DNA from: Candidatus Entotheonella sp. DD2
GTDB taxonomy: Bacteria > Tectomicrobia > Entotheonellia > Entotheonellales > Entotheonellaceae
Reading direction: 5' to 3'
NCBI GenBank assembly: GCA_964656735.1
Contig: CAZZSM010000001.1
Location: forward strand, 808,198-852,387
Length of the DNA stretch: 44,190 bases
In this document: positions 236 to 39,960 of the stretch, piece by piece
Position numbering within the stretch: position 1 is the first letter of the stretch
Layout of the letters: the number at the start of each line of letters is the position of its first letter
Notes under the pieces: model-generated
Told to the model about the DNA's origin: nothing
The model's database searches: none
What the model saw: only the letters and a program-made list of their open reading frames with translations
Translations under genes and position numbers: made by a program

Positions 236-2284
236 TTAGTATTTTACTTTTTTGAATTGTTCTTTCATCTCGTTGAGAGATGGTAGTGTGCGGTACTTGA
301 GCAGTGGACTCATCGCATTAGCTAGACCTGCAAGCAGGCTGAGATTGTACAGAATCATACCAGTCACAAGGCCAAAACTCAGAAAGAACACACCACCTAA
401 GCAAATAACCCCCGGGATGATACTGGTCCTGAGATTGTTTTTCATGTTACTTTCGAAATCATAAGTGATGTCAAACAATTGGCTGAGGTTCGTCAGCGTG
501 CCATCCATCAAGATAATCTGCGCCGTATCTGTTGCCGCGGTCGAAGCCCCGCGCAGGGAAATCGAGACATTTGCTGTTTTCAAAGCAATGGAGTCGTTGA
601 TCCCATCGCCAACAAAGCCGACGAATTTCCCCTCCTGACACAGTTGCTCCACCAAGGCCGCCTTGTTCTCCGGCAAGGTCTCGGCAAAGTAATGCGGGAT
701 GCCCAAGGACTCGGCTAACTGACGGGTGGGCTCTTCGTGATCGCCTGAGATGATGTAGAGGGACATCTGGCGCTCACGCAAGCAATCGATGACGGCTTTC
801 GCCTCGGGCCGGATGGTTGGGCGCAATTCAATTGCCCCTTCCACTTGCTCGTCAAGCGCCAGGTAGACCAGGGAGGCGCCCTTGTGGTTACACTCGGCTT
901 GGAGCTTTTGCAGGTCATCGGACAGCTCGATCCCTTCCCGCTCCATAAACCGGGCGCTTCCGACCCGCACCAACCGGTCGTGGAGCCGGACTTGAATCCC
1001 GTAGCCCACTTCATAAGCCGCCTCATCAATGGGCGGTAGATTCAGGCCATGGTGCTCCGCTTCCTCCAAGATCGCCTTGGCAATGGGGTGGCTCTGCCGG
1101 TACTCGGCCGCAGCAGCATACGTCAGGAGTTCCATTTCCGGCACGCCGTTGCAGGAATGGATGCGGCTCACATGGGGTTGCTCCAGGGTCAAGGTGCCGG
1201 TTTTGTCGAACACGATTGTATCGACCTGGCTAAGCGATTCCAGCGCGCGGCCATCTTTGACCAAAATGCCCTTTTGGGAGAGGATTTGCAAAAAGTTCAA
1301 CACGCTAATCGGGGAGACGAGCCGCATGGTGTAGCCAAAGCTGGCCCAGATGATCGATAAGGCCCGGTCGAGGCCAAGAAGCGGCCAGGTGAGGCCACTG
1401 ACGACTAGTGTGGGCAGGGTCCAGTTATCGGCGATCTTCTGGCCACGCGCTTGTAGCGTGTCCTTAAAATCTTTGCTGCGATTCAAGATCTCACCGATCT
1501 GAGCCGCGATGGTTTCCGCTCCGGCTTTTTCAACCTCAATGCAAATACGACCGGACAGGACGACCGTGGCCGCATAGGCGCTCTCGCCCGCTTCCTTTTC
1601 CACCGGTTGGGCTTCGCCGGTCAACAGGTGTTGATCGACCGTGGCCAGGCCAGCGGTCACCACGCCATCGACCGGGATCATTTCGCCGGCGTTGACCACG
1701 ACGATATCGCCCGGTTGCACCGCCTCAAAAGGGGTTTGCATCTCGACCTCATCGCGTAGCACCCACACCATGCGGGGCTGTTCGCCAAACACATTGATCA
1801 ACTTCTTGCGGGAGTTATCCTCAGTCTTCATGAGCAGTTTGAAGCCGAGGCAGGCGAACCAGCTCGTCATGGCTGCGAGCACGATATGTCCGGTGATCAA
1901 CATGCCCCCGGTCAGGATGAGATCCCCGACATCGGTGGTGACCCGCCGTTCTTTAAGCGCGCCAGCAGCGCTACGCACAATCGGCGTCGCGGCATAGAAA
2001 ATGGCGCCCAAACTGAGAAAGGTCAACGGCGGATACACCAGAGCGCCAAGGATGGCGGCGCCCAGCATGCTTGACGACAAGGCGAAAAACCGATTGACCT
2101 CTTTCTCCATCTCGCCTCTAGCCTCGTCTGCGCTAGCGGAAGTCGTTGCGGGTGGTTCGTGAGCTTCAGGATTGCGTTGGGTCACAAGGAACTTAGCGGC
2201 GTTTTTCTTGCCGGACCTGGGGGACAAGCGGCTGGCAAACAAAAGGCTGCTCGCAGCACTCGTCAGTAGAATTTCGACTAACAT
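236..2284 (-). CDS. P1B-type (heavy-metal-like) P-type ATPase, atypical, no CPx motif
   Basis: TGE (LLTGEAQP), DKTGTLT, HP (SHPIA) and GDGIND motifs plus hydrophobic segments. The pre-phosphorylation helix reads SFGYTMRLVSP instead of CPCALGLATP. Confidence 0.92.
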   Translation of the reverse strand: MLVEILLTSAASSLLFASRLSPRSGKKNAAKFLVTQRNPEAHEPPATTSASADEARGEMEKEVNRFFALSSSMLGAAILGALVYPPLTFLSLGAIFYAATPIVRSAAGALKERRVTTDVGDLILTGGMLITGHIVLAAMTSWFACLGFKLLMKTEDNSRKKLINVFGEQPRMVWVLRDEVEMQTPFEAVQPGDIVVVNAGEMIPVDGVVTAGLATVDQHLLTGEAQPVEKEAGESAYAATVVLSGRICIEVEKAGAETIAAQIGEILNRSKDFKDTLQARGQKIADNWTLPTLVVSGLTWPLLGLDRALSIIWASFGYTMRLVSPISVLNFLQILSQKGILVKDGRALESLSQVDTIVFDKTGTLTLEQPHVSRIHSCNGVPEMELLTYAAAAEYRQSHPIAKAILEEAEHHGLNLPPIDEAAYEVGYGIQVRLHDRLVRVGSARFMEREGIELSDDLQKLQAECNHKGASLVYLALDEQVEGAIELRPTIRPEAKAVIDCLRERQMSLYIISGDHEEPTRQLAESLGIPHYFAETLPENKAALVEQLCQEGKFVGFVGDGINDSIALKTANVSISLRGASTAATDTAQIILMDGTLTNLSQLFDITYDFESNMKNNLRTSIIPGVICLGGVFFLSFGLVTGMILYNLSLLAGLANAMSPLLKYRTLPSLNEMKEQFKKVKY

Positions 2285-2665: not shown

Positions 2666-2691
2666 AAGTAAATTTTTCGTAGGAGCACCTT

Positions 2692-3279
2692 ATGCCCTGG
2701 GATGAAGAAGAGGATACCAACACCTATAAAGTGGTTATTAACCACGAGGAACAGTATTCGATCTGGCCGGCCGACCGGGAAAATCCGCTGGGATGGAACG
2801 ATGTTGGCAAAAGCGGCCCCAAGGCCGAGTGTCTGTCCTATATTGAGGAGGTGTGGACCGACATGCGGCCGCTGAGCCTGAGGCGGCAAATGGAGGAACT
2901 GGCCCGCAACCCACCACCGCCACCACCGCCTTCGCCTCTTGACAACACACCCGAAGATGCCCTGGTCCAGCGCCTCGCCACGGGCCGTCATGCAATCGAA
3001 GCCGGCTTGCGCCCGGATCGTACGGTTGAGCGTCTCAAGGAATGCCTCGACCGGCAATTCGTTCACATCAAGTTTACTGAGACGCAGGGCGGGACCGAGT
3101 TGGGAATACCACTCGAGCCCCAGGCCTCCGACTTCGGGCAGGCCGATTTCACCAGCGGCGCAGGTTCCGTGCATCTGGAAGGCAACCTGGTGCTGGATTT
3201 CGTCAAGGTTCGCTTTATTGGGGATGTTGACCTGGGAACCCTGGCGGGTGAAGGTTATCTGCAAATTCGCGAAGATTAG
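2692..3279 (+). CDS. mbtH: MbtH-like A-domain chaperone fused through a poly-Pro linker to a ~105-aa CBF-beta-like domain
   Basis: MbtH signature [10 protein letters not shown]...PLGW...[18 protein letters not shown], then a PPPPPPP linker and an extra C-terminal domain. RBS AGGAG upstream. Confidence 0.92.
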
Positions 3280-3283
3280 GACC

Positions 3284-5578
3284 TTATGCCTCCGTGAGCA
3301 TGAGCTGCTCGTCCTTCTGGTGCTGCAATACAGGCTTCATGACAATGCCGAGCGCAGCAGCCAGACCAAAACTATAAAAGAGTTCTGTTGCGATGAAGTC
3401 AAAGTGCAGGAACAAAATACCTCCTGCACACAGCAGGCTTAATGCTATGTAGGACCGGAAGAGCAGCTCGATGTTGCGATTAAATTCATCGGCAAGTATC
3501 AAGAGCTCTAATAGTTGATTGAGACTGGCATCCATCAGCACAATTTGCGCAGTGTCTGTCGCTGCGGTAGTCGCCCCGCGCAGGGAGATCGACACATCTG
3601 CTTGGCGCATGGCAATCGCGTCATTGATCCCGTCGCCTATGAAACACACACAGCGCCCCTCTTCTTGTAACTGCTTGACCAAGTCCGCCTTGTGTTCCGG
3701 CAGGGTATTGGCAAAATAGCCCGGAATGTCCAACTCGGTGGCGAGTTTTTGCGTTGGCGCTTCATGATCACCGGAGATGATGTAGAGCGATAAGCCACGA
3801 GCTTGCAAGCCATCGACAATATGTTTGGCCTCCGGCCGAATCGTCGGTTGCAGTTCAATGCTGCCCGCCAATTCGTCGCCGACCGACACTATCACTAAAG
3901 AATGACCTTGACCGTGACAGAACGCTTGGTGTTCCTGGCTTGCCATAGGTAAGTCGACACCTTCCATGGTCATGAAGCGCTGACTGCCAATGCGTATCAG
4001 ACGCTCCGAGAGCCGCACCTTAATGCCGTACCCCACTTCGTATTGCGCCTGTTCGATGGTGGGCAGGGTTAATTGTTGCTCTTCGGCAGCGGCTTGGATG
4101 GCGCGGGCAATGGGATGCGTCTGCCGATATTCGGCCGCCGCGGCCAGGGCGAGCACTTCGTCATCCGCCATGCCGTTGTACGTGTAGATGTGGGCCACGT
4201 GGGGCTGTTCGAGGGTGAGGGTGCCGGTCTTGTCAAAAACGATGGTATCGATTTTGTCGAGGCGTTCGAGAGATCGGCCATCCTTTAGCAAAATGCCTTT
4301 ACGAGCGGCAATATTGAGGAAATTTAGCATGCTGATCGGCCCTGCCGCGAGCATGCCAAAGAAGTTCGACCCCAACATGGTGATGGCCCCACGGCTACCG
4401 ATGAGGGGCAAACTGACTAGGCTGGCGGTGAGTGTTGGGTATAGGGATCGATCCATCATTTCCACGCTTTTCGAGAGCATATCCAGCTTGTAAGTCGAGG
4501 TGCGGTTGAGAATCTCGCCGATCTGCGCCGCGGTGGTGTCGGCGCCGGCTTTGTCTACGCGCACATAGATGCGTCCGGCCAACACCACGGTGGACGCCAG
4601 CACTTCATCACCGATCGTTTTTTCAACTAGTTGCGACTCTCCTGTGAGCATGTGTTGATCGACCGAGGCCACGCCGTCGAGCACCGAACCGTCAACCGGT
4701 ATCGTTTGTCCCGCGTCGAGCACAATGGTGTCACCGGCTCGCAACTCCGCAAAGGGAAGTTCGATTTCAGTCCCATCCACGAGCACCCACACCGAGCGAG
4801 GCTCGTACTTGAAGACATTGATGAGGCTTTTCCGTGACCGATCCTCGGTAATCATCGCCAGTTTATTGCTCAGGAAAAACAATAGCGTTCCGACGACCGC
4901 GATAAAAAAGTAACCCCAAAACCACATGCCGGCGACATAGAAGGCGATGAGGTGAATCATCCGCAGGCGGCGATCTTCAACCGCGGCTTTATACGCCATT
5001 TGATAGATTTTCAGCGTGAACAAGAATCTCGCGGCAACCGCGAGCACGAATAAGGGCGGAAACACCCACTGGCCAATCAACATGGCCCCAACCGCCACCA
5101 CGCCGAACGCGATATGGCGATTGATGGCCTTCTCTTCTTTGCTGATTTCCAAGATTCCCTCAGAAGCCAGGGTTTGGAGGTGTTGGAGCCGGGTTCGACC
5201 AAACAGCGGATCGATGCGAGCCTGCATAAACTGCTGATACTTGTTGTCGAACATCCTAATGTAGGTGATGATATCTGCGACAATCTCTTCCGCGATGGCG
5301 ATCAAGTTCCGCGTATCGATCATTGCCGGGTATGGTCTCCCGTACAGGGATTTTAACTTTGCATCGCTGCTGTCGTGCAGACGCGCCGGCATCCGGACCA
5401 CACCATTATTGGCCGCCTGGCGCGCATGATCGACCGATCGGTTGGAGTGCTCATCCACCACCGCATCACGATCGTTGAGGAAGGTTTTGGTCCGTTGCCG
5501 CCGACGGAACTTTTTGACCGCGGCGGTGCCAACCGCTAATGTACCGCTCGCGAGGGTTAACGAGAAAACGGGTAACAT
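3284..5578 (-). CDS. Second atypical P1B-type ATPase, no CPx motif
   Basis: LTGES, DKTGTLT, THPIA and GDGIND motifs. The helix reads SNFFGMLAAGP. It starts 40 nt after the PKS-TE stop on the same strand. Confidence 0.92.
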   Translation of the reverse strand: MLPVFSLTLASGTLAVGTAAVKKFRRRQRTKTFLNDRDAVVDEHSNRSVDHARQAANNGVVRMPARLHDSSDAKLKSLYGRPYPAMIDTRNLIAIAEEIVADIITYIRMFDNKYQQFMQARIDPLFGRTRLQHLQTLASEGILEISKEEKAINRHIAFGVVAVGAMLIGQWVFPPLFVLAVAARFLFTLKIYQMAYKAAVEDRRLRMIHLIAFYVAGMWFWGYFFIAVVGTLLFFLSNKLAMITEDRSRKSLINVFKYEPRSVWVLVDGTEIELPFAELRAGDTIVLDAGQTIPVDGSVLDGVASVDQHMLTGESQLVEKTIGDEVLASTVVLAGRIYVRVDKAGADTTAAQIGEILNRTSTYKLDMLSKSVEMMDRSLYPTLTASLVSLPLIGSRGAITMLGSNFFGMLAAGPISMLNFLNIAARKGILLKDGRSLERLDKIDTIVFDKTGTLTLEQPHVAHIYTYNGMADDEVLALAAAAEYRQTHPIARAIQAAAEEQQLTLPTIEQAQYEVGYGIKVRLSERLIRIGSQRFMTMEGVDLPMASQEHQAFCHGQGHSLVIVSVGDELAGSIELQPTIRPEAKHIVDGLQARGLSLYIISGDHEAPTQKLATELDIPGYFANTLPEHKADLVKQLQEEGRCVCFIGDGINDAIAMRQADVSISLRGATTAATDTAQIVLMDASLNQLLELLILADEFNRNIELLFRSYIALSLLCAGGILFLHFDFIATELFYSFGLAAALGIVMKPVLQHQKDEQLMLTEA

Positions 5579-5618: not shown

Positions 5619-8600
5619 CTAATCGGACGTGCCTAGCAGGTAGCCCCTCAAGGTTTCCGCCAGAACCGGACTTTGAATAATCGAATAGTGGTCGCCGGGA
5701 ATCTCATGCAATGCGAGCTTGCCGGCTGCCACCGCAGCCCAGCCGAGACTTGCATCTTGGCTCGATTGCCCGGAGTCACTTGAGCAAAAGAATATGATGT
5801 CTCCCGCATAGGGTTGCGGACGATAGTCGTCCATGGCACGAAAGTTAGCCGTATAGACCGCTAAGCGATGGCGAATTTGCTCGGCCTCAAGTTCCGGGGG
5901 CAAGATGCCAAGCCGTCTCCCTTCGGTGACGATAAGCCGCAGTTGCGCTTCCGCGTCGAGCTGCCGCAAGTCATGTACCGAGAGAGACAGTGTCTTCCCG
6001 ACCATCGCACCCATGTAGCTTGCGAAATAAGATGCATAGGTTGCGTCGTCGACCTCGCCGGTTTGCACGCTCGGGAAAAAAGAATCGATCATGACGAGCC
6101 GGGCCACTTCCTCCCCGCGGCTTCGGAGCTGTTGCGCCATTTCAAAGGCCACCAGGCCACCTAGTGACCACCCACCAAATTGGTAGGGGCCTTGGGGCTG
6201 AATGCCCTGCAACAGACTGAGGTAATACGTGGCCATGTCCTCAACCTGGGTGAACGGTGTGTCCTCTCCGTCCAGTCCGCGCGCCTGCATGGCATACACC
6301 GGGAGCTCGGCATCCAGATTGCGGGCCAGATAACGGTAGTCGTAGATCGACCCGCCAACGGGGTGGATCAAAAAGAGCGGTGTTGTTTGGCTGTTGGCCG
6401 ATTGCAGTGGCACGAGAACTGTGGAGCGCGATGGCTGAGGGCGTATCTCGGTCGCCGCTGACGCCGCGTTCATCTCGTCAACAATGGCCGCCAATGCCGC
6501 CACCGTCGGGGCGCTCATGAGATGATTGGGTGACAGCTTGGCTTGCAAGGCGTCGCTCAACGCGGACGTGAGCTGAATCGCCAAGAGAGAATCCCCGCCA
6601 ATCTCGAAAAAATCGTCGTGGATACCCACCTGTTCGATGCCCAAAAAATCTTGCCAAACTTGGGCAATCGTGTGCTCCAGCTCGCTTTCGGGCGCGATGT
6701 ACGTCTGTTCGATCACCGGCCGTGGGCTTTTTGGCTTGGACACGTGAGTAATGTCGGCGTCCGGCCCTTCTTCTCGCATGGTTGACGCCTTGAGACCCGG
6801 CTGCATGTGAAGCTCCAGGTCTTGTGTCGAGACGAGCACCTGCATGAATGAATGCGACAGAATACGGTTGAAAGCCTCGACGCCCTCGGCAGATAATAAC
6901 CCGTGCTGAAGAAGTTGCCGCTCGACAGGAGACGATGCCGGTATGCCCACCGGCGAAGGGATAATCCCATTGCCCGGATCGTCTGTGGGCTCCAGCGCCA
7001 AGGTCCGCAGGACATACGCTTCAATCTCAACCCACCCGCTTCCGTGTTCGTCCATGATCGTGATATCAAATGCCAATGTGTCTTGCCCATGCGGGTGCTG
7101 CTCGGCGGGACGGATATAGCTGTATATCGTTTTCGGTAGCGGGCCTAGGACTCGCAGTTTCTGGTAGGAAAACGGCAGGTAGAATCGTTCATCCGGCGCA
7201 CTGAGGAAATTCGTGGCGCCGTCCAATAAAGTGGGATGTAACGCATAACAGTTGAGGTCTTCAGTATAGGCGTCGGGAAGTTCACAGAGCGTCAAGCTCC
7301 GATCGGCTCCGAGATACGCCTGCTTCAAGGTCTGCCACCTGAGGCTGGCTTCGATGTAGTCGGTTCGAGATCCCGCCTGATCTTCAGTGACCACCCGCTC
7401 CCGCTCCCGACAAATGGCTTGTATCTCACCGATGTCATACGGTTTGGGCGATGCGTCCTCTACGGTGGTGAGGGTTCCTCTGGCATGTTCGCGCCAAGTC
7501 GCGGGCTCGGCTGCCGCTTGACTCATGATCGAGAATTGCCACTCCTCTCCCTGTTGCGTCAGACGCGTTTGCACCTCGATTTCCTCGTCCTCGGCCACCA
7601 CCAGAGGCTGCAATAAGAAGACGTCGCGCAGTTCCATCGCGCCACATTGCACCTGGTGTTCAAACGCCGCGCGAGCCATTTCCAAATACGCGGTTGCCGG
7701 CAGGGTGGCCTGCCCCACGAGCCGGTGTTCATCCAGCACCCAGTGCTTATGGACGCTAAATTGCGTTGTGTAGATGGCTTGCGCCTCGCCCTCGACAATA
7801 CAGTGCTCAAATAACGGATGCGGGACATCGTCTTGCAGCGGAGTTGGCGAAAACCCGGCATGCTGGGCAAGGGTCTTGGCCGCCTCAACCGCCATGCCCA
7901 CTTCCTGCCACGTGTCCCAGTTGATCGAGACCGTGTGGGTCCCATCCCGGTTCGTCTTGTCGTGGGCAAACGCATCGAGAAAGGCGTTAGCAGCGCAGTA
8001 GTCGACTTGCCCAAAGCCGCCAGCCATGGCGGTCAGAGATGAACAGAGGATCCACCAATCCAGCTCGCCATCCTTGAGAAGTGCGTCTAGAACCAGCGTT
8101 CCCTGCACTTTGGGGGCGAGAATCGCGTCCGCAATGTCTCGCGTTTTGCGTTGTATAGCGCCGCCGCCTGGAACGCCAGCAGCGTGGATGACGCCATGTA
8201 GCTGACCAAATCGAACCTGCGCCCGCGTCATCACGACCTGCATTTGTTGGAACTCGGCCACATCCGCTTGCAGCGCCATCACTTCAGCCCCCAACGCTTC
8301 TAAGGTCTGCAGGCTCCGGATTTTGCGGCTCACGTCATCTTGCTCCGGGTGAGCGGCCAGCCATGGGTCCCACTCGGAGCGCTCCGGAAATGCCGAACGT
8401 CCGGTCAAGATCAGCTTGGCCCGCACTGTTTTCGCGAGATATTCGGCCAGGGCCAGGCCAATGCCGCCGAGTCCGCCGGTAATCAGATAGACGCCACCCT
8501 CCCTTAACCGCAGTGTCCCATTACCAGCCCCTTCCAGATGCACAGAATCGAAGCTGCGCACCCAGCGATGATGGCCCCGGTAAGCGATCACCGGTGCCGC

Positions 8601-11600
8601 CGATGGGGCGGCGAGTTCCTCCAGGAGCTGGTGGGTCAAAGGGGCCTCTTGCCATGTGGTTTGGGGCAGCATCACATCCACACTGCGGCAGGTGAGATCG
8701 CCGTACTCTTGAGGGATTACGGTCACCGGACCGAGTAGGGTTGCCTTTTCCGGATAAAGCCATGCTTCGCCCGCCACTTCTTGCATGTTATTGGAACAAA
8801 CGGTGAGGTGACAGGGCTCAGCACGATTCTGCCGGCCTAGGGCTTGGGCCAGAAAGAGCAAGCTGTGGAAGCCACGCCTTTGCACCTCGTCCACCCATTC
8901 CAGTCCGCCCACTTGAGGCTCGGCGACGCTCCACAAATGCACGATGTGGGGCGGGATCGATCCCAGGTCGTTAAACAGCGCATCGTAGTCATCGGGGACG
9001 CCGGGGTTGAGGACGTAACGGTCCTCTGCTTGCTTGCCGAATGCGTCTCCCGCCTGCACGGCGATCACTTGCTGACCAACCTGCAGCAGTCGTTCCATCA
9101 GCCGCTCGCCCACGTGGCATCTATCCATCAAGATCAGAACAGGGCCTTGCAGGGTGGCAGCGGTGATCAGCGGGGTGCGCTTCCAAACCGGGACGTAAAA
9201 CCAATCGGCCATGTCCGGCTTTTTGCCCGGTTGAGGTGTGGTCTGCATGTTGATGCTATCTGGTTGCACTGCATCTACCTGTTGCACCGTATCCAATGGA
9301 CGGTCAATCCAACAGCGTTGACGCTCAAAGGGATAAGTCGGCAAAAGCACCCGGCACCGCTGTTGATCGGCATAGAAACCCGGCCAATCGACCTTGCAGC
9401 CGTGCATCCAGAGCTGTCCCAGCGTTTTCAGCCCAAACGCCACATCCGAGTCGGCTTGTTGCGGATGGCGCACAGACGTGAGCACCACCTGCCCGGCGGC
9501 TTTGCCCGGGTGTTGGTTCACCAGGGTGCTCAGCGTCCGCCCGGGACCGACCTCCAGCAGGATTTGCTCCGCATCCTGCTGTTGTATGGTCTCCACGCCC
9601 TGGGCAAATCGGACCGGGCTGCGCAAGTGCCGAGCCCAATAGGTGGGATCGGTCGCATCGGCCGCAGTCATCCAAGTGCCCGTAACGTTGGACACATAAG
9701 GCAGTTGCGGCGGGTTAAGGCGAACGCGTTGCAAGCGCGCGGTGAAGGGTTGCAGAATGGGCTCCATCATCTGGGAATGGAAAGCATGAGAGGTGTGCAA
9801 ACGGCGGCATGGAATTTTCTGCTCAGTGAGTTGCTGCTGCAAAGCGTCGATGGCGTCTCCGGGCCCCGACACCACACAACGGGAGGGGCCATTGATCGCC
9901 GCCAGCGACAGGGTCTGGCCCAGCAGGAGATATACCTCGTGCTCAGGCAAGGGGATGGCGAGCATGGCGCCACCGGGGAGCTGCTGCATCATCTGCCCGC
10001 GCGCCGCCACCAGCGCCAGGGCATCTTCCAGAGAGAAAACCCCGGCCAAGGTGGCCGCGACATATTCACCGATGCTGTGTCCAATGGCCGCTTTCGGGTG
10101 TACGCCCCACGATTGCCAGAGCTGCGCCAGAGCGTATTCCATGACAAAGAGAGCGGGTTGGGTAATTGCGGTTTGCTCGAGTTGGTGTGCGGCGTCGCCC
10201 GTCAGCTCGTCCTGGGGATAGAGGACCGTGCGCAGGTCCAATCCCAGGTGGGGTTGCAACATCTCACAACACCGCTCGACCTGCTCGCGAAACAGGGGTT
10301 CGCTTTGGTAGAGATCCCGTCCCATATTGACATATTGCGAACCCTGTCCGGAAAACATGAAGACGACCGGCCGCGTCTTGTCTCCCACCATGCCAGTCAA
10401 CACCCGCTGCGCATCCAAGCCGCTCAGCGCTCTGGCTGCATCATCGGGAGCCGAACACACCAAGATCCGCCGATGGGAGAACGCAGTGCGCCCCACGCTC
10501 AGAGTGTAGGCCACATCGGCCAGATTGCAGTCGGCATGTTGTTGTAGGTGAGCCGCGAGATCAGCGCTTGCCGTGTCAAGGGCGGACGGAGTCCGGGCGG
10601 AGAGGAGCAGGAGTTGCCAGGGTTTTCCCGGCGCCTCGGTTGCTATTGTTTCCTGCGCCACCGCAGGCGCTTCTTCGACAATCACGTGGGCATTGGTGCC
10701 CCCAATGCCAAACGAACTCACGCCCGCACGGCGAGGGATGCCGTTGCTTTTCCACTCGGCGAGGGAGGTCTTGACGTAGAACGGACTATTGGCAAAATCG
10801 ATCTGCGGATTGGGCTGCTCAAAGTTCAAACTGGGCGGTAGCTGTTTGTGTTGCAACGCCATGACCGTCTTGATGAGTCCCGCCACCCCGGCCGCAGTAT
10901 CCAGGTGACCGATGTTCGTTTTCACTGCACCAATGGCACAGAAGCCCGTTTTCTGCGTGCTCTGCCGGAACGCCCGGGTCAGGGCGGCGATTTCGATCGG
11001 ATCGCCCAGCGGCGTTCCCGTGCCGTGGGTCTCCACGTAGGAGATGGTCTCGACATCCACCTCGGCCAGGGATTGGGCTTCGAGAATGACTTCGGCTTGC
11101 CCGGTCACACTCGGCGCGGTATAGCCCACTTTCTGTGAGCCGTCATTGTTGATGGCAGAGCCTTTGATCACGGCATAGATGCGATCGCCGTCAGCCACTG
11201 CATCTTCGAGCCGTTTCAGCATCACCAGACCAACGCCATTGCCGATCGTGGTGCCTTGTGCGTTAACGTCAAAGGCGCGGCAGTGTCCATCCGGCGACAT
11301 CACCATGCCTTCCTGATACAAATACCCGGTTTTCTTGCTGTGCATGGACGGTCACCCCCCCCGGCCCAGGCCATCTCGCACTGATAAGTCAGCAAGCTCT
11401 GGCAGGCCATGTGCACGGCCACCAAAGAGGTAGAGCAGGCGGTATTGACATAGACACTGGGGCCGGTCAGGTTCAACTTGTAGGACACCCGCGTGGGCAT
11501 CGCGTCGTTCTCATTGCCAATCGCGATTTGAAACCCACCCATCATCCGGTTCAGTTCGGGGTTCGGGTACAGATGGGTCAAAAAATAGGTATTCGTCCCC

Positions 11601-11983
11601 GCTCCCGCGTAGACGCCAATGCGCCCGGCGTAGGCGTCCGGGGCATAACCGGCCTGTTCCAGGATTTCCCAGGCACACTCCATGAAAAGGCGTTGCTGGG
11701 GATCGAGCAGTTCAGCCTCCCGAGGCGAATAGCCAAAAAACGCGGCATCGAACAGCTCGATGTCGGACAGCACGCCTTTGGCCCGCACATAGTTGGGGTG
11801 GTTGAAAACGGTCGGATCGACGCCGGAAGCACGCAATTCCGCATCGCTGAAAAAGGAGATGGATTCGATACCATCGCGCACATTTTGCCAAAACGCGTCG
11901 ACCGTGTTGGCTCCCGGAAACCGGCAAACCATGCCCCTAATGGCAATGCCGTCCAAGGCGTCTTGCATGTCCTCCAGGTTCAT
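5619..11983 (-). CDS. Terminal cis-AT PKS module KS-AT(malonyl)-KR-DH-ACP-TE, split by a frameshift at ~11335-11362 (ORFs 11300-11983 and 5619-11345)
   Basis: KS NTACSTS lies in the upstream ORF, with HGTGT and IGHL in the downstream ORF. AT GHSIG and HAFH; KR GGLGGIG and DYCAAN; DH HRLVGQATLP and HPTLLD; ACP GGDSL; TE GWSLG and GDH. Confidence 0.88.
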
Positions 11984-12019
11984 TCAGACATCTCCATGTC
12001 CAGGCATGTTAGTATCAAT

Positions 12020-13129
12020 TTAAAAATAAGATTGGAGCTCGCCTCTTCTACGAATATCTAAGGTAGCGCAATGAAAAGAGCCACCAAACGCGTTGAAATT
12101 GCAGAAGTTACACAGAATAGGTTTGAATCCCCAGTCTTTTAAGGCTTTAATAAGGGGCGCTTCATGTTTTTCAACCATGATGCGTTTCTCATCTAGCATC
12201 AATATATTCATACTAATCCACTTCGTACTCATGTAAAGCGGTATATGATCAGGAATACAGGGTTCCGGTGCATATAACACATCCCAGGACTTCACGATAT
12301 CCGGCAGCCGCCCCATTTTCATGGGATTGAGTAAGAGCTTACCCGGAGCAAGTGGCATAAACGTTGCGTCAATATGCATAGCGCCCGGATCGTTTACATC
12401 AAGTTCATGGATCGTATACTGAGAACCTAAATGCCGCTTCAGCCACTCAATCCCTAAACTGTTCGTCACTTGACTTTTCTGTACGAAAATGTCTTTCCCG
12501 CACCTCATAAAGTCAGCTGCATCAAATGTGGGTTCAAACTCCGTGATGGCGTACGCTTGATCTTCGCCCTGATGGCCGGGATGCTCACGGTAATCATAGT
12601 TGTACTGCGCATCGACTAATTGAGGTTTTGGAGCTGCGACCCACTTTGCTCCTTTGCGAAAATAGTCTGTCAGCAAGGGGCGATAAGCCTCGATTTCAAA
12701 ATACCTGGAGCGCCAGGCCATAGGCGCCTCAATCAGTTCATTGCCGATGACGAGCAAGAGGTCTCTTGGCATGGCCGCGTAGAGGCCACCGGCACTCTTC
12801 CAATTGGGCGTGGCATACGGCCGGGTAAAGTCGATGACGTCGGGGCGGCGCACCGTCACGCCTTCCGCCTCTAAGATATGGGCAAATGCCTCCAGTTCCT
12901 GTCTGGCAGCCGCGACTTGTTCTTTTGGGAAGGGTTGCCCGCCATGGGTTTGAAAAAACGGGAACTGCTGAGCGGGCATGGTCGCTTCCAGCGTGATATG
13001 CCACGATGGCACCGCCGCCCCATCGATCACCCCCACGATGACTTCTTCTAAGGGATCCCACTCATTGAACGAGTTCACGATGGGGAATTCCTGTATTCTC
13101 AAATGCGTCTGTTTCATATGTGCTAGCAT
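12020..13129 (-). CDS. L-arginine:amine amidinotransferase (glycine amidinotransferase/CyrA/SxtG/AmtA family)
   Basis: NSFNEWDPLEEVIVG, MPRD, FDAAD, MHID and GGSFHC (Asp-His-Cys triad). The start is probably 13129 or 13117, not 13387, which would overlap the NRPS. Confidence 0.93.
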   Translation of the reverse strand: MLAHMKQTHLRIQEFPIVNSFNEWDPLEEVIVGVIDGAAVPSWHITLEATMPAQQFPFFQTHGGQPFPKEQVAAARQELEAFAHILEAEGVTVRRPDVIDFTRPYATPNWKSAGGLYAAMPRDLLLVIGNELIEAPMAWRSRYFEIEAYRPLLTDYFRKGAKWVAAPKPQLVDAQYNYDYREHPGHQGEDQAYAITEFEPTFDAADFMRCGKDIFVQKSQVTNSLGIEWLKRHLGSQYTIHELDVNDPGAMHIDATFMPLAPGKLLLNPMKMGRLPDIVKSWDVLYAPEPCIPDHIPLYMSTKWISMNILMLDEKRIMVEKHEAPLIKALKDWGFKPILCNFCNFNAFGGSFHCATLDIRRRGELQSYF

Positions 13130-13232
13130 GCCTTTCTTTTTGTCGCATCGAACCATCTCTGAAAACTTAAGTTCCACATCCTCTTCATGACCCTCTCCTG
13201 ACCTAGGCCCAACAGAAAGGTGAGCGTGCTGC

Positions 13233-17872
<4,640 letters not shown>

Positions 17873-17879
<7 letters not shown>

Positions 17880-20800
17880 TCTTCGTCCTCTTCATCTTCC
17901 AGCACTTGTCCCAAGGGCAGCATATGGCGAGCGGCTGCGAGCGCCTTAATATGTTCGGCTAGGCTTGCCACGGTAGGACGTTCAAAGAGCTGACGCAGGG
18001 GTAGCGCGATCTCGAAAGCATTGCAAAGACGAGCGATCACCTGAGTGGCCAAGAGCGAATGACCGCCGATATGAAAGAAGTTGTCGTCAACGCCGATTTT
18101 TTCCAGGCCAAGTACCGCACACCAGACGGCGGCGATCGTTTCTTCCGTATCGTTGCGCGGCGGTGTATAACGGGCTTCAAGGCCCAGACTCAAGGCATCC
18201 GGTGCCGGTAAGACGTGGCGGTCCACCTTGCCACTGGGGGTCAATGGCAGGGCATCCAATGGCACAAACGCCGAGGGGATCATATAGTCCGGCAGCCGGT
18301 TCCGGAGGAAGGTGCGCAAGGCTGCCATGTCGCCGTTCGGCAAGGTGGTGACAACATACGCGATCAGCCGTTTATCACCGGGCCGATCTTCTCTCACCAC
18401 GACCACGTTCTCCCGCACATCCGGGTGCTGACTTAGCACCACCTCGACCTCGCCCAGCTCAATGCGAAAACCGCGCAGCTTCACCTGGGTATCCATGCGG
18501 CCCAGGAACTCGATGACCCCATTGGGCAACCAGCGCGCCAGGTCTCCGGTGCGATACAACACCCCCTCGCCATACGGGTTGGGCACAAAGCGCTCCGCCG
18601 TCAGACTAGCTCGATTGAGGTAGCCCCGCCCCACCCCATGGCCGCCCGCGCACAGCTCGCCCGCGACCCCAATCGGTACCGGTTGAAGCCAGGCGTCGAC
18701 AATATACACCTGCGTATTGGCTATCGGACCGCCAATTGGCACCGACGACGCTATGGGATCGTCAGCCGATACCGCATAGCAGCACGTGAATGTCGTGTTC
18801 TCAGTCGGACCATAGCCGTTGATCAGTTGACACCCCGGCAGCTCCCGCAACACCCGCTGCACATGGGGTACCGAGAGCACATCGCCGCCGGCCAGCAATT
18901 GGCGCAGGGGGCGCAAATCCGACAGGCGCTCCTCCACCATCACATGAAACAGCCCGGCCGTTAGCCATAGCGTCGTCACCTGATGCTGCTGAACCAGCCC
19001 ACCCAACGCTTCGACCGACAACCCCTGCGGGGGCGGCAGCACCAGACAGCCGCCGTTCAACAGGCTGCCCCACAGCTCCAACGTGGCGGCATCCAAGGAA
19101 ATCGGCGCATATTGCAGGAACACGTCGGCGGCGGTGAGCTGGGCAAAGTTCGTCTCTTTCACCAGCCGCACCACGTTGCGGTGCACGATACCGATGCCTT
19201 TGGGCCGGCCGGTCGAGCCGGACGTGTACATCACGTAGGCCAGGTGATCGGCCGTGATCAGGGGGGTGGGATTGGTGCTGCTGTTGCGAGAAATCCGCTC
19301 CCAGGCTGCATCCACACAGACAATGTCTGCCTCGGTGTTCGGCAGCAGATCACGCAAATGCTGTTGGGTCAAGATCACCGGGGTATGGGTATCGGTCAGC
19401 ATAAAGGCCAGGCGGTCCTGGGGATAAGCCGGATCCAGAGGCACATAAGCCCCGTCCGCCTTGAGAATGCCGAGTATCCCCACCGCCATTTCCAGTGACC
19501 GCTCGATGCACAGACCCACTAGCGTCTCGGGACCGACCCCTAGCGCTTGCAGGTCATGCGCCAGTTGGTTAGCCCGGCGGTTCAAGGCCCGATAGGTCAG
19601 GGATTGGTTCTCAAACACGATCGCCACCGCGTCCGGGGTGCATGCCGCCTGCGCCTCAAATAGCTGATGGATAGGCGTGTTAGAGGGATACTCGCTCTGC
19701 GTTGCGTTCCACTGCACCAACACCTGCTGCCGTTCGGGTTCCGTGAGCAGAGGCAATGCATGCACCGCCTGCTCGGGATTCGCGGCAATGGCTTCTAACA
19801 GCGTCTGGAAATGACCCGCCATACGGGCGATGGTCGCGCTCTCAAATAGATCGCTGTTATATTCCCAATAAGCTCGAAGCCCCTGCTCGGTCTCCTCCAT
19901 TCCCAGCGTCAGATCAAACTTGGCCGTGGTGATCTCAAGCGGCAAGGGACTAATGGTCAACCCGGATAGCTCAAGGGGTTCCATTGGCACATTTTGCAAG
20001 ACAAACATCACCTGAAACACTGGACTATGACTTAGATTCCGTTCGGGTTGCAGGGACTCCACCAGCAACTCGAAAGGGACATCTTGATGCGCATAGGCAT
20101 CTAGAGCGACGCGCTGCACTTGAGCCAGCAATTCGGCGAAGCTGAGATGATCGTGCAACTGGGTACGCAGAACTAACGTATTGACAAAAAATCCAATGAG
20201 CTTCTCGGTCTCTTCGTGGTGACGATTGGCAATCGGCGTGCCGACCACGATGTCTTTCTGCCCACTATAGCGGGCCAGTAACACCTTGAACGCCGCCAAC
20301 AACGTCATAAACAGCGTCGCCCCGGCCTGGCGGCTGAGGGCCGCTAACTGCTGCGTCAAAGCCGCATCCATCGTCCACCACTCAAAAGCCCCGTGAAACG
20401 TCTGCACCGCCGGACGCGCGTGATCCGTGGGCAGCGCCAACAGCGGCGGTGCATCCGCCAACTGGCCGCGCCAGTACTCAAGTTGGGTTTCTAGCACCAC
20501 CCCCTGGAGCCACTGCCGCTGCCAATGTGCAAAGTCGGCGTATTGAATGGTCAGCTCCGGTAGCGGCGATGCGGCACCTTGCGTGAAGGTCTCATAGTGG
20601 ACAGCGAGTTCGCGCCCCAGCACCCCGATTGACCAGCCATCGGTGGCAATGTGATGCTGAGTCAGCAGCAGCACATGCTCCTGGTGGCGCAGCCGCAGCA
20701 GCTTCGCCCGCAACATCAAGTCGCTCGCGAGGTTAAAGGGTTGCTGAAGCTCTTCCCGGGTCATTCGCTGCACCTCAACCTGTTGAGCTTCGCCGGGCAG

Positions 20801-23800
20801 ATGGGACAGATCGACGAGGGGCAGAGGCACAGGCGCAGGGGGGTGAATCACCTGCTGCGGCTCCCCGTCCCCTGCTGTGAAGGTCGTGCGCAGGCTTTCA
20901 TGCCGCCGCACGATTTCGGTCAGCGTGCGCGCCAGGGCATCGACATCGAGCGGCCCCTGGAGGGCCAGGGCGATCGGAATGTGATAGGCTTCACCAGTGC
21001 CGAGTTGGTCCAGCAGCCACAGCCGTTGCTGTGCAAAGGATAGCGGCAGGTGATCTTCGCGTGGCGCCGGCTCGATTTTATCGACCTTGGCATCTGCCTG
21101 AATATGCCCAATGCATGTGGCCAGACCGGCCACCGTGGGTTCCTGAAACAGGCTACGCAGCGGTAACGCGACTGCGAAGGCAGCGCGGATTCTCGAAATG
21201 ACCCGGGTCGCCAGGAGCGAATGCCCCCCTAATTCAAAGAAGTTATCATGCACGCCGATTTGCTCGACGTCGAGGATTTCCGCCCAGATGGCTGCGAGGG
21301 CTGCTTCGGCCGGGTTGCGGGGCGGGACATAGCGCGTTGCCAGTCCCAGCGTGGAAGCATCCGGGGCTGGCAGGGCGCGGCGATCCACCTTACCATTGGG
21401 CGTTAGCGGCAGCGCATCCAAGTGCACGAATACCGCTGGCACCATGTAGTCCGGTAGTTTCTGACGCAAGAAGGCGGCCAGAGGCAGCTCACAAGCCGCT
21501 GGTGTACCCACGACATACGCCACCAACCGCTGATCGCCGGGTTGATCTTCGCGGGCGATGACAACTGCTTCCCGCACCTCGGGATGTTCAGCCAAGGTGA
21601 CTTCAATCTCGCCAAGTTCGATGCGGAAACCGCGTATCTTCACCTGGTTGTCCATGCGGCCCAGAAACTCCATGCGGCCATCTGATAACCAACGCACCAG
21701 GTCCCCCGTGCGGTACAGGCGGCCCGCTCCAAACGGATTCGCAACAAAGCGCTCCCGCGTCAGCTCCTCCCGATGGTAATAGCCTCGAGCCAACCCCGCT
21801 CCACCCAAGTAGAGTTCCCCTGGCGTCCCCACTGGCACCGGACTCAGATGCCGGTCCACGATATACGCCTGCGTATTGGACACCGGACGCCCTATCGTCG
21901 GCTCCGCTGTCGCCCCCTTGGCAATCAGATCCCAGGTGGAATAGGTCGTATCCTCCGAGGGACCGTAGAGATTGAACACCTTCTCGACCGCACCGGAGGC
22001 ATAGACACGCTGCACCAACTCATTCTTGAGCGGCTCACCCGCCAGGTTCACCACCCGCACATTGGCTGGCACCTCGCCACTGCGCACCAATTCCGTCATG
22101 GCCGACGGGACCGTGTTGATCAGCGTGACCGCTTCGGCATGGGGCAAGGTGGGCAGATGCAGCGCATTGTCCGCCAGGATCACGGTGCCGCCTCGGCTCA
22201 AGGTCATGAAGAGTTCAAAGACCGACAGATCGAAACAGATCGAGGTCGAGGCCAGCACTCCGCTCACCTCTTCGGAGGTAAAGACCTGGTGCGACCAAGC
22301 CACCAACGCCACCGGGCTCTGATGTTCAATCGCCACTCCCTTGGGCTGGCCGGTGGAGCCCGAGGTGTAGAGCACATAGGCCAGATGCTGCGAGGTCACC
22401 GGGCTGCTGGGGTTGGTGGCAGGCTGGCTGGCAATGGCGACCCACTCCGTTTCCGGACAGATGGCGCAGGTCGAGTGCTCGGGCAGGTCATGCAGGAAAG
22501 ATGCCTGGGTCAACACCAGCGGCATCTGGGTATCGGCAAGCATAAACGCCAGGCGTTCTTTGGGATAGGCGGGATCGAGGGGCACGTAGGCGCCGCCCGC
22601 CTTGAGAATGGCCAGCAATCCCACCACCATCTCCAGGGAGCGTGGCATGCAAATGCCGACCAGGGTGTCTGGTGCAACGCCTTGCGCTTGGAGGTAGTGG
22701 GCGAGTTGGTTGGCGCGGGCGTTGAGGTCATGGTAAGTCAGGCGCTCATGGGCGTAGATCACGGCGGGCGCATCGGGAGTTCGTGCCACTTGCTGCTCAA
22801 CCAACTGGTGCAGACATGTGTGGGCGGGATAGTCGATAGCAGTATCGTTCCACTCGAACAGTATCTGATGGCGCTCGGCTTCGGTCAACAGCGGTAGCTC
22901 AGCAATGGATAAATCAGGATTCGTTACAATGCCTTCGAGAAGGGTCCGAAAGTGCATCACCAAGCGCTGTATCGTAGTGGCATCAAACAAGTCACTATTG
23001 TAGACGCAGCTCCCTTGCAATGCGCCGCTGACGTCATAGAGATATACTGCGAGATCAAACCGCGTAATGTGAACATCCGTTTCCAGCAGACGCATCTGTA
23101 CATCTGTCAGTTCCATGACGGCTGGCAGCTCGTATTGAAGCTGAAATAAGACCTGAACCAGGGGATTCAGGTTGAGACTGCGCCGTAGTTGCAACTCCTC
23201 CACCAAGCGCTCAAACGGTAAATCCTGGTGCTCGTAAGCCGCACGTGTCACCTGGCGAACCTGATCCAAAAGCTCAAGAAAGGTGGGGGGACACCCGTTG
23301 GACCCGGACAAATCGGCGCGCAGGGCCAGGGTGTTGAGAAAAAACCCGATCAGCGGCTCAAGCTCTTTGTGCGAACGATTGGCAATGGGTGTGCCGACGA
23401 CAAGGTCATCCTGTCCCGTATGGCGATACAGCAACACCTGAAACGCCGCCAACAGCGTCATAAAGAGGGTGGTACCCGCTTGCTGACTCAGGATCTGTAA
23501 CTGTTGCGTCAATATCGCATCGATGTTCATGGCGACCGCACGTCCGCGGTAGCTCTCGCTTGCCGGGCGTGGGCGGTCGGTGGGCAATTCCAGGACCGGC
23601 GGTGCATCGGCCAACTGCTGTTTCCAGTAGGTTAGCTGTTGGTCCAGCACCTCTCCCTGCAGCCACTGGCGTTGCCACTGCGCAAAGTCGGCATACTGGA
23701 TAGGGAGTTTTGGCAATGGCGATGGGCTGCCGTCGACAAATGCCTCGTATAGTGTCGACAGCTCGCGTAAGAGAACCCCTATCGACCAGCCGTCCGAGGC

Positions 23801-24424
23801 AATATGATGCAGGGTCAGCAGCAACACATGTGCCGTTGGCGTCAGCCGCAGCAGCTTGGCGCGTAGCATCATGTCCCGGTTCAGGTCAAAGGGATGTAGC
23901 GCCGCCTCGTGCGCTAACCGCCTCACCTCAGCGTCCTGTTCGCCCGCAGGCAGATGCTGCAAATCGACGATGGGCAGGTCTAAAGTGACATCATCATGAA
24001 TCACCTGGCGCGCTTCGCCATCGATCACGGCAAAGGTGGTGCGCAGACTCTCATGTCGCTGCACGATGTCGTTCAGCGCCCGCGCTAGCGCCGCCACATT
24101 CAGCCTGCCGCTGACCTCGAGATTGGGCGGTGCATTGTAGGCAGGACCAACGTCCAACTGATCCAAAATCCATAACCGCTGTTGCGCAAACGAGAGCGGC
24201 GCGGGACCCGGTTCGGACACGGGCTGGATGGCTGGACGTGTCACACGTTGCTGCTGGGCCTGTTGCAAGAAGGCGAGAATCTCCTCCTTTCGCGTCCGGA
24301 GATCATCAAGCCAATTCGGTGTGAGCACACCCGGTGGCGCACTATAGCCCAAATAGCCGTCATCGTCCCAGAGCTTGACGTCCAGACGATCGAGATCAGC
24401 CAAAAACTCACCGATGGGTTTCAT
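17873..24424 (-). CDS. Bimodular NRPS: docking domain, C-A(Ala)-PCP-C-A(Val)-PCP
   Basis: HHIASDG and HHIATDG; codes DLFNNALTYK (Ala) and DALWLGGTFK (Val); two GGHSL PCPs; ATGA overlap with the upstream PKS. Confidence 0.93.
19400..19755 (-). repeat. Dispersed near-identical segment, copy 1 (N-terminal part of the Val A domain); copy 2 at ~38000-38356
   Basis: agagggatactcgctctgcgttgcgttccactgcaccaacacctgctgccgttcgggttccgtgagca occurs at ~19682 and ~38283, with highly similar flanks. Confidence 0.8.
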
Positions 24425-27400
24425 AACCTGCCTACATCCCGTTGTTCCATTGCAACCTCGGATGGCTCTTGCATCCGGTTTGCCAGCATCAATTCATCAA
24501 CGCGAGCCGCCAACCCAGCGATGGTTGGATTCTCGAACAGGCTGCGCAGCGATAATTCCATCTGCAAGGTTTCCCGCACCTGGGCAACCACCCGCACCCC
24601 CAATAGCGAATGCCCACCCAGTTCAAAAAAGTCATCGTGAATGCCAATCTGCTCAAGACCCAGCAGCATCTGATAGATGGTGGTCAGGGTCTGCTCAGTC
24701 TCGGTTTGCGGCGCCACGTACGGCGTGGCCAGATCGGGGCGTTCATGCACGGCCTGATGCCCGTTGCGCTGATCGGATAGCCCCGGCATGTCAGTCGGCG
24801 AGCGACTGAGTAAGACGTCGAGATCCTGAATGGAGACGAGCACTTGTGGCGGTACGGGCTGACCGATAATGCGCCGGAACGCCTGAGCGCCTTCACGCGC
24901 CGTCATGCCGACGGTCGCCTCGCCGGTGAGGGCTTCGAGCATCTGTTCAAAGGCCACGGTTGAGCCGCCAATGTGCAGCCATCGGTCCCAGTCAATCGAG
25001 ACCGTAAACTGACCGCTTCTGGCCGTGCGGTCGTGAGCATAAGCGTCTTGGAACAGATTGGCGGCAGTATAATCCACATAGGCAAACGAGCCGAAGATGC
25101 CGGTGAGCGACGAACAGTAGACCATAAAATCCAGTGGCTGATTTTCGAAGATGGCGTCGAGCACCAGGGTGCCCTGCACCTTTGCCGCTAGCGCCCGCGC
25201 CATGGACGCCGGTGTTTTGCGCAGCATCACGCCCGGTTCCAGCACGACTGCGGCGTGGATGACCCCGTGAATCGCGCCGAAGTGTTCCCGCGCCTGGGCA
25301 ACCGCCGCCGCCATCTGCCCCTGGTCGGCGACATCCGCACTCAGTGACAACACCTCGGCTCCCTGTTGCTCCAGGTCTTGAATCCGGAGGATAGTCTGGC
25401 TCGTGGCGTCCTCTTCGCCGTGCTCCGTCAGCCATTGCGCCCATGCGTCGCGTTCGGGTAATCCGGTACGCCCAACCAAAATGAGCCTGGCCTGCACCTG
25501 TTCCGCCAGATCAGCGGCCAGCGCGAGCCCCACCCCGCCCAGCCCGCCGGTGATCAGATCAACGCCCTGTTGCCGCAGCCGCGCGCCAGGTTGGCCGGCC
25601 TCCAGGCGAACGGGCTCAAAGCACTGCGTCCAGCGATGGGGGCCACGATACGCCACCAGGGTATCCGGCGCATCGCTGCGCAATTCCGTGAGCATCTGCT
25701 CAATGAGCGGCGCCGTCTGCGGACTGCCGGGTTCCGGCACAACCACATCGACGCAGCGGCAGGTGATGTGGGGGAACTCCTGGGGAATCACCTTGACGGG
25801 TCCCAACACCAGGGCCTTTTCCGGACAGCGCCCTGCTTCGCCCATCACATCATGCATGTGGTTGGTCAACACTGTGATCGCCAGCGCATCAGTCCAACCA
25901 TGGATATCGAGTGCCTGGGTCAGGGAAACCAGGCTATCAAAGCCGTATGTCTGCATCCTGGCCGTTCTGTCAAAGACGGATTCCTCGGCCGCGCCGTCCG
26001 CAGTTGTGAGGGTCCAGGCGTGGACGACCTCCGTTGGGCGGCTGTCCGGTTGGGTCAGCTCGCCGACCAGGGCGACGTAGTCATCATGTTGCTGAGGGTT
26101 GAGCACAAACTCGTGCGGGGTCAGCCTGGCAAATGCCGCTCCTATCCGCACGATGATGACCTCTTGACCGGCTTTTGTCAGGCCCTCGATCAGGTGTTCG
26201 GAGCATCCCGAGCCATCGGCAAAGACCAGCCAGCTTTGCGGGGCTTCCGGCCACGTTTTTTGCGGGTACAGTGCGGCCGGTGTCGACTGTTTCCAGGCCG
26301 GTAAGTAGAACCAGTCCGCCATGTCGGGCTTTTTACCGAGCCTATGCTTTGCGGCGTTACCCGCCGGTGGCTCAACCCAGTAGCGCTGGCGCTCAAACGG
26401 ATAGGTCGGCAAGGGCAAACGGCAGCGTGGCTCGCGGGTGCCGTAAAAGCCGTTCCAGTCCACCGGCACACCGGCCAACCACAACCGGCCTAGCGTATTG
26501 AGGAGGAACGCCACATCGGATTGCTCGTCTTGCGGGTGACGCAACGACGTCAACACGACCTGGCTTTGACGCGCCGGGTGCTGCCGGGTCAACGACGCCA
26601 TGGCGCGTCCCGGGCCGACCTCGAGTAGAATCCGATTGGGCTCGTCCAGCAACGTCTGCAAACCCGTGGCAAAGCGCACGGTGTGACGCAGATGTTTGAC
26701 CCAGTACTCCGGATCGGTGACTTCGCTGGCCGTGATCCATGTGCCCGAGAGGTTGGACACAAAGGGACGCTGGGGTGGCCGCAGGGTGAGCGTCGAGACA
26801 AACTGCCGGAATGGCGCCATGATGGGCTCCATGAGGGCTGAGTGTCCGGCACCGGCGATCGGCAAGCGGCGGTGATCGACGTCACCGTCCTGCAACCGCG
26901 CCTGCAATCGATCGATGGCCGCACTGGCTCCCGCCACCACGCATGAGGAAGGCGTATTGACCAGGGCGATGGAGAGATCGGCGCCCGATGGGTCTTCGTT
27001 GATCAGGGCCTGAATCTCTTCCTCCGCCAACGATACCGTCAGCATGGCGCCCGGAGGCAGGGTTCGAATCAGTTGGGCGCGGTGGTTCACCAGAGCCAGC
27101 CCATCTTCCGGCGTAAATACTCCGGCCAGACAGGCCGCCACGTATTCGCCCAGGCTATGGCCAATCATCGCCTGGGGTTGGATGCCCCACGACATCCACA
27201 ACTGCGCCAGCGCATACTCGGTCATAAACAGGGCGGGCAGTGCCAAGAATGGCTGTTGCAGCTGCTCTGCCGCACGTTCCGGGTCGTCCGGATGATAGAG
27301 CAGCGTGCGCAAATCAAGTCCTAGATGGGGCATGAGGCATTCGACACAGCGATCGATCTCCTGGCGAAACACCGGTTCAGTCTCATACAACTCCTGCCCC

Positions 27401-29067: not shown

Positions 29068-29070
29068 TCG

Positions 29071-30285: not shown

Positions 30286-30303
30286 ACCTGCGTCCTCCAA
30301 AAA

Positions 30304-32910: not shown

Positions 32911-32982
32911 CGCTTGTCTCCTTGGGCGTGTAACCCGTCAAACGTGCGGCGCAATCTGCCTAACCATGATCTTTTCCTCTCT

Positions 32983-39746: not shown

Positions 39747-39806
39747 AGTTCCCTAGCCTGTAGATTGGCCGGTTTTGATAGGAATACAATTGTCCAGAAA
39801 ACACCC

Positions 39807-39852
39807 ATGATACTCTCCAAACGCCTCAAGAACGCCTCAAGAACGCCTCCAA
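39807..39852 (-). promoter_or_regulatory. Putative NRPS operon promoter: three GGCGTT direct repeats at 11-bp period plus -10 TATCAT
   Basis: aacgcc at 39820, 39831 and 39842 on the plus strand. The minus strand reads ttggaGGCGTTcttgaGGCGTTcttgaGGCGTTtggagagTATCAT (7-nt gap). Confidence 0.65.
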
Positions 39853-39960
39853 CGGAAATAACATACCCCAAAAATTCTTTTGAGAATTACGATTACACTA
39901 TCATCCATTGGCCAAGAAGGTCATACACGCAAGGTAGTGACGTTCATCTCTATCTCTTCT

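Follow-up and report, generated by a model that had tools for sequence, protein, structure and literature searches.

A gene of Candidatus Entotheonella sp. DD2 that joins an MbtH-like domain to a CBF-beta-like domain beside an NRPS/PKS cluster

MbtH-like proteins (e.g. PA2412, YbdZ and FscK) bind the A domains of NRPSs, and they are routinely co-expressed so that NRPS enzymes fold and work. Long biosynthetic operons, in turn, often have RfaH/UpxY-type antiterminators. A protein of a different kind is animal CBF-beta, the cofactor of RUNX, which has been traced to the common ancestor of metazoans; it makes 18 RUNX contacts in all, with T60 and T62 among those named (PMC2527000, in the part of the text available). 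Replacing its N104 with alanine (N104A) abolishes RUNX binding while folding remains normal (PMC10866659, likewise in the part available).

In the window (i.e. the whole stretch of 44,190 nucleotides that was analysed), both kinds of domain occur in the product of a single gene (Table 1), which lies on the strand opposite to that of both flanking ATPase genes. Its translation contains zero internal stops and holds all of the motifs quoted in the initial annotation, including the Pro7 run of the linker (residues 74-80, i.e. 2911-2931). The same fusion was found in the 120 matches listed from a full-length search, at 62-70% identity, from which it follows that it is not an assembly chimera. Given these homologous fusions, and the neighbour-like GC at codon positions in both halves (GC3 of 0.71 and 0.65, versus 0.66-0.71 in the neighbours), a chimeric-assembly artefact is ruled out. 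A scan of 2280-3400 for promoters and terminators found 0, the same as in shuffled sequences. In the DD2 assembly (96% complete, 8.6% contamination), this fusion is the sole MbtH and the sole CBF-beta-like sequence found, and A-domain matches are present on seven contigs.

Table 1. Features of the window around the fusion gene, and examples of the KYC protein at other loci
Feature	Coordinates	Strand	Evidence
P1B-type ATPase, divergent neighbour, not conserved with the domain	236..2284	-	context
Shine-Dalgarno-like AGGAG	2681..2685	+	6 nt 5' of ATG, sequence
MbtH + CBF-beta-like fusion gene (P0001)	2692..3279	+	intact 195-aa ORF, Pfam, homologues
MbtH-like domain, residues 4-72	2701..2907	+	Pfam PF03621, PDB sequence and fold matches
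Proline-rich linker, residues 73-87, predicted flexible	2908..2952	+	low pLDDT, Pro content
CBF-beta-like domain, residues 88-195	2953..3276	+	Pfam PF02312, Foldseek, VIA-align, profiles
P1B-type ATPase, convergent neighbour	3284..5578	-	context
Hybrid NRPS/PKS cluster, six AMP-binding domains in five ORFs	5619..40752	-	Pfam
ORF without Pfam match, inside cluster	12020-13120	-	weak pentein-fold match (dimethylargininase, E 9e-4)
Crotonyl-CoA carboxylase/reductase-like gene, between NRPS and PKS genes	29071-30300	-	TIGR01751 E 1.5e-17, below cut-off
KYC example	L030:5654-5989	+	in NRPS/PKS cluster
KYC example	L007:6640-7284	+	in NRPS/PKS cluster
KYC example	L083:1456-1728	-	in NRPS/PKS cluster

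The identification of the first half as an MbtH domain was sound: PF03621 matches residues 4-53 with 80.7 bits (cut-off 27, E 5e-23), and PDB chains of the PA2412 type match at E 4e-24 with about 67% identity. W25, W35 and W55, as well as NxExQYSIWP and WTDMRPLSL, are intact, and among the 120 listed homologues W35 and W55 are invariant while W25 is kept in at least 90%. The SxWP and PxGW motifs of MbtH are likewise present in the fusion protein. The three-strand plus helix fold of MbtH, with its conserved Trp, is present in the fusion model, the half agrees with 2pst to an rmsd of 0.9 Å (Foldseek on the model), and MLP-NRPS complexes are found among the PDB matches of the model.

The hybrid cluster begins 2.3 kb downstream of the fusion gene and is likely to be the client of the MbtH half. 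The ORF without Pfam match inside it, which by eye we take from its motifs to be amidinotransferase-like, suggests a guanidino building block, and the crotonyl-CoA carboxylase/reductase-like gene could possibly provide an unusual extender unit or a trans-acting reductase. Several genes of the window are in pieces (5619-11983(-), 30304-32910(-), 39961-40752(-) and 42673-43869(-)): the ketosynthase of the terminal PKS is divided between two frames and DctP between two ORFs, one C domain is incomplete, and the cluster starts with a lone A-domain end and a carrier fragment. This fragmentation reflects either sequencing errors or decay.

The resemblance of the second half to CBF-beta had initially been proposed from a comparison by eye. 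PF02312 matches residues 115-194 of the whole protein with 26 bits (cut-off 25, E 8e-6), the isolated DD2 domain scores 28.1 bits, and the cut-off is passed by 15 of the 18 bacterial domains tested. Against the PDB, CBF-beta was absent at E<=1 from a single-sequence phmmer search with the fusion protein; it was matched at E 0.015 by a full-length profile of 120 sequences, at E 6e-5 by a domain-only profile of 84 rows, and, over human residues 16-137, at E 9e-9 by an 11-row subgroup profile. Foldseek, which had been suggested as a check, places human CBF-beta (8cx0_C) at rank 1 for the fusion model (E 1e-6), and every match listed (35 rows, from ranks 1 to 50) is a chain of CBF-beta or of MbtH. 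VIA-align superposes residues 88-195 of the model on residues 14-130 of 1e50_B (Z 13.4, rmsd 2.2 Å, 100 residues, 25% identity), the best unrelated fold for this half reaching Z 4.7 among 48,161 chains. Judged by these profile and predicted-fold matches, the proposed likeness is a real homology.

Between the two halves, a linker of 15-22 aa with at least four prolines is found in 117 of the 118 homologues parsed. In the AlphaFold2 model of the fusion (120-row alignment, mean pLDDT 85.4), pLDDT falls below 50 at residues 81-88, and this low-confidence linker, together with a pTM of 0.53, is consistent with two independent domains.

The CBF-beta-like domain forms a broad but patchy bacterial family. 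At E<=0.001, 2,745 proteins (107-342 aa) matched the full-length fusion, of which those beyond the 120 listed may match via MbtH alone. A domain-only search gave 331 clusters at 50% identity; among the best 150 of these, 18 include an MbtH part, the majority being stand-alone proteins roughly 105-125 aa long. Named records come from Nitrospirota, Acidobacteriota, Actinomycetota, Cyanobacteriota, Chloroflexota, Myxococcota, Pseudomonadota, Aminicenantes, Omnitrophota and Bacteroidetes. The domain is carried by 4 of the 17 genomes of DD2's class and by 9 of the 301 genomes of one cyanobacterial order (centre genome counted), and in a phylum-wide sample of 120 cyanobacterial genomes the centre genome was the only carrier. 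In a tree of bacterial domains (210 of 264, with no animal sequence), 13 of 207 branches are well supported; fused and stand-alone forms are interspersed in it, and the number of fusions cannot be read from it. By eye, five stand-alone proteins (P0133, P0179, P0206, P0217 and P0267) have signal-peptide-like N-termini, and P0217 has an acyl-carrier-like insert within its CBF-beta-like domain, perhaps as a chimera. Two others, P0160 and P0194, for which the search returned neither names nor taxa, are candidate eukaryotic members at most.

The guess that such fusions already sit in databases was confirmed by existing labels: both fused and stand-alone forms carry PF02312, under names such as 'MbtH domain protein' and 'uncharacterized protein YbdZ (MbtH family)'. 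For stand-alone entries the name 'MbtH domain protein' is misleading, as there is no MbtH domain inside. Neither the fusion nor the stand-alone domain has an NCBIfam model, nor does the small KYC protein discussed below, and in a literature search (with subscription papers mostly outside its reach) neither the fusion nor any bacterial family of CBF-beta was found described or given a function. Within the MbtH system, the fusion is a genuine variant, labelled by Pfam but not yet studied.

Across 118 carrier loci, mbtH is fused to the domain or lies within 1.5 kb of it, upstream or downstream, in 112, a count to be read in the knowledge that the loci are related, ranked by likeness to the query and hence not independent. 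For the genome set, 80 loci were kept of 593 found with MbtH-derived patterns (35 with the domain, 45 with MbtH only). The metagenome set was chosen to avoid the bias of these patterns: a profile of the domain alone found 585 loci, and the best 80 in similarity to the fused query were kept; 66 of the 80 are fused and 74 have MbtH, and the six without MbtH are all close to contig ends. Because related genomes are not independent, the p values given below overstate the differences. At L012:4111-6588(+), an A domain, a carrier, MbtH and a CBF-beta-like domain are all encoded in one open frame (825 aa if counted from the earliest possible start), which may be either a genuine fusion with an NRPS or the result of read-through.

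MbtH is present in 55 of the 301 cyanobacterial genomes. Eight of the nine domain carriers have mbtH within 1.5 kb; the ninth (locus L168) is an orphan, its 10.4 kb lacking mbtH, KYC and NRPS genes alike. In 47 of the 55 MbtH-bearing genomes there is no match to the domain, which means that MbtH proteins in general can function without it. This dispensability, the orphan and a broken copy in genome G397 would fit a passenger domain without any NRPS role. Such a reading is, however, hardly credible for a domain that has stayed intact, conserved and linked to mbtH across seven or more phyla and in many different gene orders.

The best-kept positions in 84 domains include T131 (82 domains), G134 (77), T135 (83), L168 (82) and N or D at 169 (83). 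In the printed profile alignments, T131/G134/T135 align with T60/G61/T62 of CBF-beta and L168/D169 with L103/N104 (the N104 position thus being Asp in the DD2 protein), a comparison that covers five positions (T60, G61, T62, L103 and N104) where CBF-beta has 18 contacts, so that a wider list could shift the count kept. Going by these aligned residues, the pattern suggests that the bacterial domain binds a protein via the same face as CBF-beta; the conserved Thr and Gly may instead serve a hairpin turn. A search of six carrier genomes with PF00853 (Runt) gave no match, and its positive control gave none either.

The conserved polar residues (T131, T135, E136, N/D169 and R174), along with the signal-peptide-like N-termini seen by eye in P0133, P0179, P0206 and P0267, could also be explained if the domain bound a small molecule or acted catalytically in the pathway. 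In fact, none of the residues is invariant across all 84 rows, a Cys that is common in the family is Phe in the DD2 protein, the clusters that accompany the domain are chemically unrelated and the nearest fold is non-catalytic, all of which makes a ligand-binding or catalytic role improbable.

If the domain binds a protein, gene linkage offers a candidate. A small protein of 90-110 aa that starts with a KYCKAY motif (here 'KYC') is encoded in 18 of the 35 carrier loci of the genome set compared to 2 of the 45 MbtH-only loci, and in 22 of the 80 metagenome loci. In cyanobacteria it occurs in 11 of the 301 genomes and is adjacent to the domain in seven of the nine carriers. Over all 118 carrier loci, many of them on short contigs, it is present within 1.5 kb in 36 and absent within this distance in 82. 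The three components occur in six arrangements across Cyanobacteriota, Chloroflexota and Acidobacteriota (fusion then KYC, 13; KYC-domain-mbtH, 9; mbtH-KYC-domain, 4; domain-KYC-mbtH, 3; KYC then fusion, 3; mbtH-domain-KYC, 1), and in most of these KYC is the direct neighbour of the domain. In several lineages it follows ankyrin repeats within one protein, and it also occurs as a stand-alone protein; among 519 proteins from length-limited searches, 0 joined KYC to either the domain or MbtH. Four of the 11 genomes have KYC without the domain, and in two of these it sits in a PKS cluster that shows no mbtH over 8.5-9 kb. In DD2, KYC is absent within 1.5 kb of the fusion gene, and a copy is located among NRPS accessory genes on contig C111, the GC content of which is 61% versus 57% for the contig of the window (C1), in an assembly with 8.6% contamination.

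KYC has 1,683 homologues at E<=0.001, belongs to no Pfam or NCBIfam family, and has no PDB match by sequence below E 8. Its model (mean pLDDT 82.5) gave no Foldseek match at E<=0.001, a best Z of 3.0 and Atlas matches below 0.9; a missing fold match does not prove a new fold. The idea of KYC as a Runt-like partner found no support, with no Pfam match and no Runt chain among the structural matches of the model. From gene linkage, KYC is the likeliest candidate for the partner of the CBF-beta-like domain.

The following mechanism is put forward tentatively, with a little less than an even chance of being correct. The MbtH half would bind and support the A domains of the DD2 NRPS clusters, while the CBF-beta-like half would serve as a non-catalytic adaptor recruiting a second helper, for which KYC is the best candidate, and the purpose would be to keep the megasynthetase folded and active. 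Binding through the same surface as CBF-beta, KYC as the partner and the folding purpose are all points that we infer. A helper with this purpose would be in line with the stabilisation of NRPS megaenzymes by Hsp90 (10.1101/2025.07.01.662645, in the part of the text available). Against the mechanism are the 82 of 118 loci without KYC, the orphan locus, the Asp at the N104 position and the lack of a counterpart to residues 1-13 of CBF-beta.

It could also be that the CBF-beta-like domain contacts the synthetase itself (i.e. an A or C domain) beside MbtH, with KYC as a separate accessory in the cassette. The link with mbtH (112 of 118) is far tighter than that with KYC (36 of 118), KYC also occurs alone or beside mbtH only, and the long proline linker and the pTM of 0.53 suggest two independent binding heads. 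Direct contact nevertheless seems unlikely (if worth serious attention), since KYC tracks the domain (18 of 35 loci) over MbtH alone (2 of 45), accompanies seven of the nine cyanobacterial carriers set against 55 MbtH genomes, and is the immediate neighbour of the domain in most arrangements.

The initial annotation described the domain as an interaction module that could link A domains to a regulator or to the flanking ATPases. The tie to A domains fits both the linkage with mbtH (112 of 118) and the conserved residues of the RUNX-binding face, and stands as an adaptor reading; the ATPase part found no support. Two ATPases do flank the gene, two out of three same-class relatives of DD2 have one nearby, and two more flank contig C51, as might be expected if the domain linked A domains to P-type ATPases for export or metal supply. 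Outside the class, however, P-type ATPases are found in 0 of 35 genome and 0 of 80 metagenome carrier loci within the DNA examined, the gene runs opposite to both neighbours, and 13 such frames are scattered over the DD2 genome. With 13 related frames in the genome and 0 of 115 loci outside the lineage, the adjacency is local, and the ATPase link is dismissed as very improbable. Nine frames of DD2 encode similar P1B-type ATPases with over 50% identity, and ATPase pairs flank both the fusion gene (236-5578) and the NRPS contig C51 (1643-3775 and 20474-22696).

A link with a regulator fared slightly better, but is weak. RfaH/UpxY-like genes are found in 9 of 35 carrier loci versus 1 of 45 MbtH-only loci (p 0.002) and in 10 of 80 metagenome loci; by analogy with animal CBF-beta, the domain might bind such an antiterminator and tie free MbtH to the expression of long operons. 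The antiterminator is missing at most loci, including that of DD2, antiterminators of this type are frequent at long biosynthetic operons anyway, and the six carrier genomes showed no Runt match (the positive control being silent as well), so that regulatory coupling is of low probability. Hsp90/HtpG genes are present in 18 of 80 metagenome loci, and in 4 of 35 carrier versus 1 of 45 MbtH-only loci, which is not significant (p 0.16). Type II thioesterases and PPTases are part of carrier cassettes, with no enrichment over MbtH-only loci. In acidobacteria (L005, L007, L008 and L010) an RfaH-like gene and htpG lie upstream, in an operon with the fusion and an ankyrin-KYC gene at the head of NRPS clusters, and L172:16164-18107 is listed with these RfaH-like/htpG operons; in DD2, htpG, a type II thioesterase and a PPTase are found together on contig C3.

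The two-residue insertion after T131 is absent in 7 of the 84 rows, as it is in CBF-beta. This no-insertion subgroup has many relatives and gives the best match to human CBF-beta (E 9e-9, residues 16-137), and the Pfam scores of the insertion and no-insertion types overlap. This subgroup would be the place to look for a donor of animal CBF-beta; the direction of transfer cannot be read from the tree, which is bacterial-only and poorly resolved. In the parts of the texts available, PMC2527000 has no mention of 'prokaryot' and PMC6040629 no passage on CBF. On a wider reading, which is doubtful, bacteria would possess a three-part NRPS helper complex (MbtH, adaptor and KYC), and animal CBF-beta would be derived from the adaptor through lateral transfer, its binding face having been put to a new use. 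If true, second and third helpers would work with MbtH in cyanobacteria, acidobacteria, Nitrospira, Chloroflexota and actinomycetes, and leaving them out could explain failed heterologous NRPS expression. CBF-beta has been treated as an animal gene, and now that bacteria show a large and varied family with its fold and a conserved binding face, the question of where the RUNX cofactor came from becomes testable; the Pfam label on the fusion already limits the surprise.

Compared to known systems, the DD2 protein is closest to the MbtH-like proteins (PA2412, 2PST/5JA2; PvdL-MLP, 9UP2; YbdZ, 5JA1; FscK, 6EA3), which are alike to its residues 4-72 in sequence and fold, and it likewise lies beside an NRPS cluster and keeps the three tryptophans. 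It differs from them in adding a proline linker and a second domain of 108 aa. In the known MbtH fusions among the PDB matches (SlgN1, 4GR5; ObiF1, 6N8E), the partner is an NRPS and not a CBF-beta fold. Animal CBF-beta (CBFB; PF02312; PDB 1E50, 1H9D and 4N9F) shares the predicted fold over its residues 14-130, whereas its residues 1-13 and C-terminal tail have no counterpart in the DD2 domain. Most bacterial members also differ from it by the two-residue insertion after the T60 position and, unlike the animal protein, the bacterial domain is linked to NRPS clusters.
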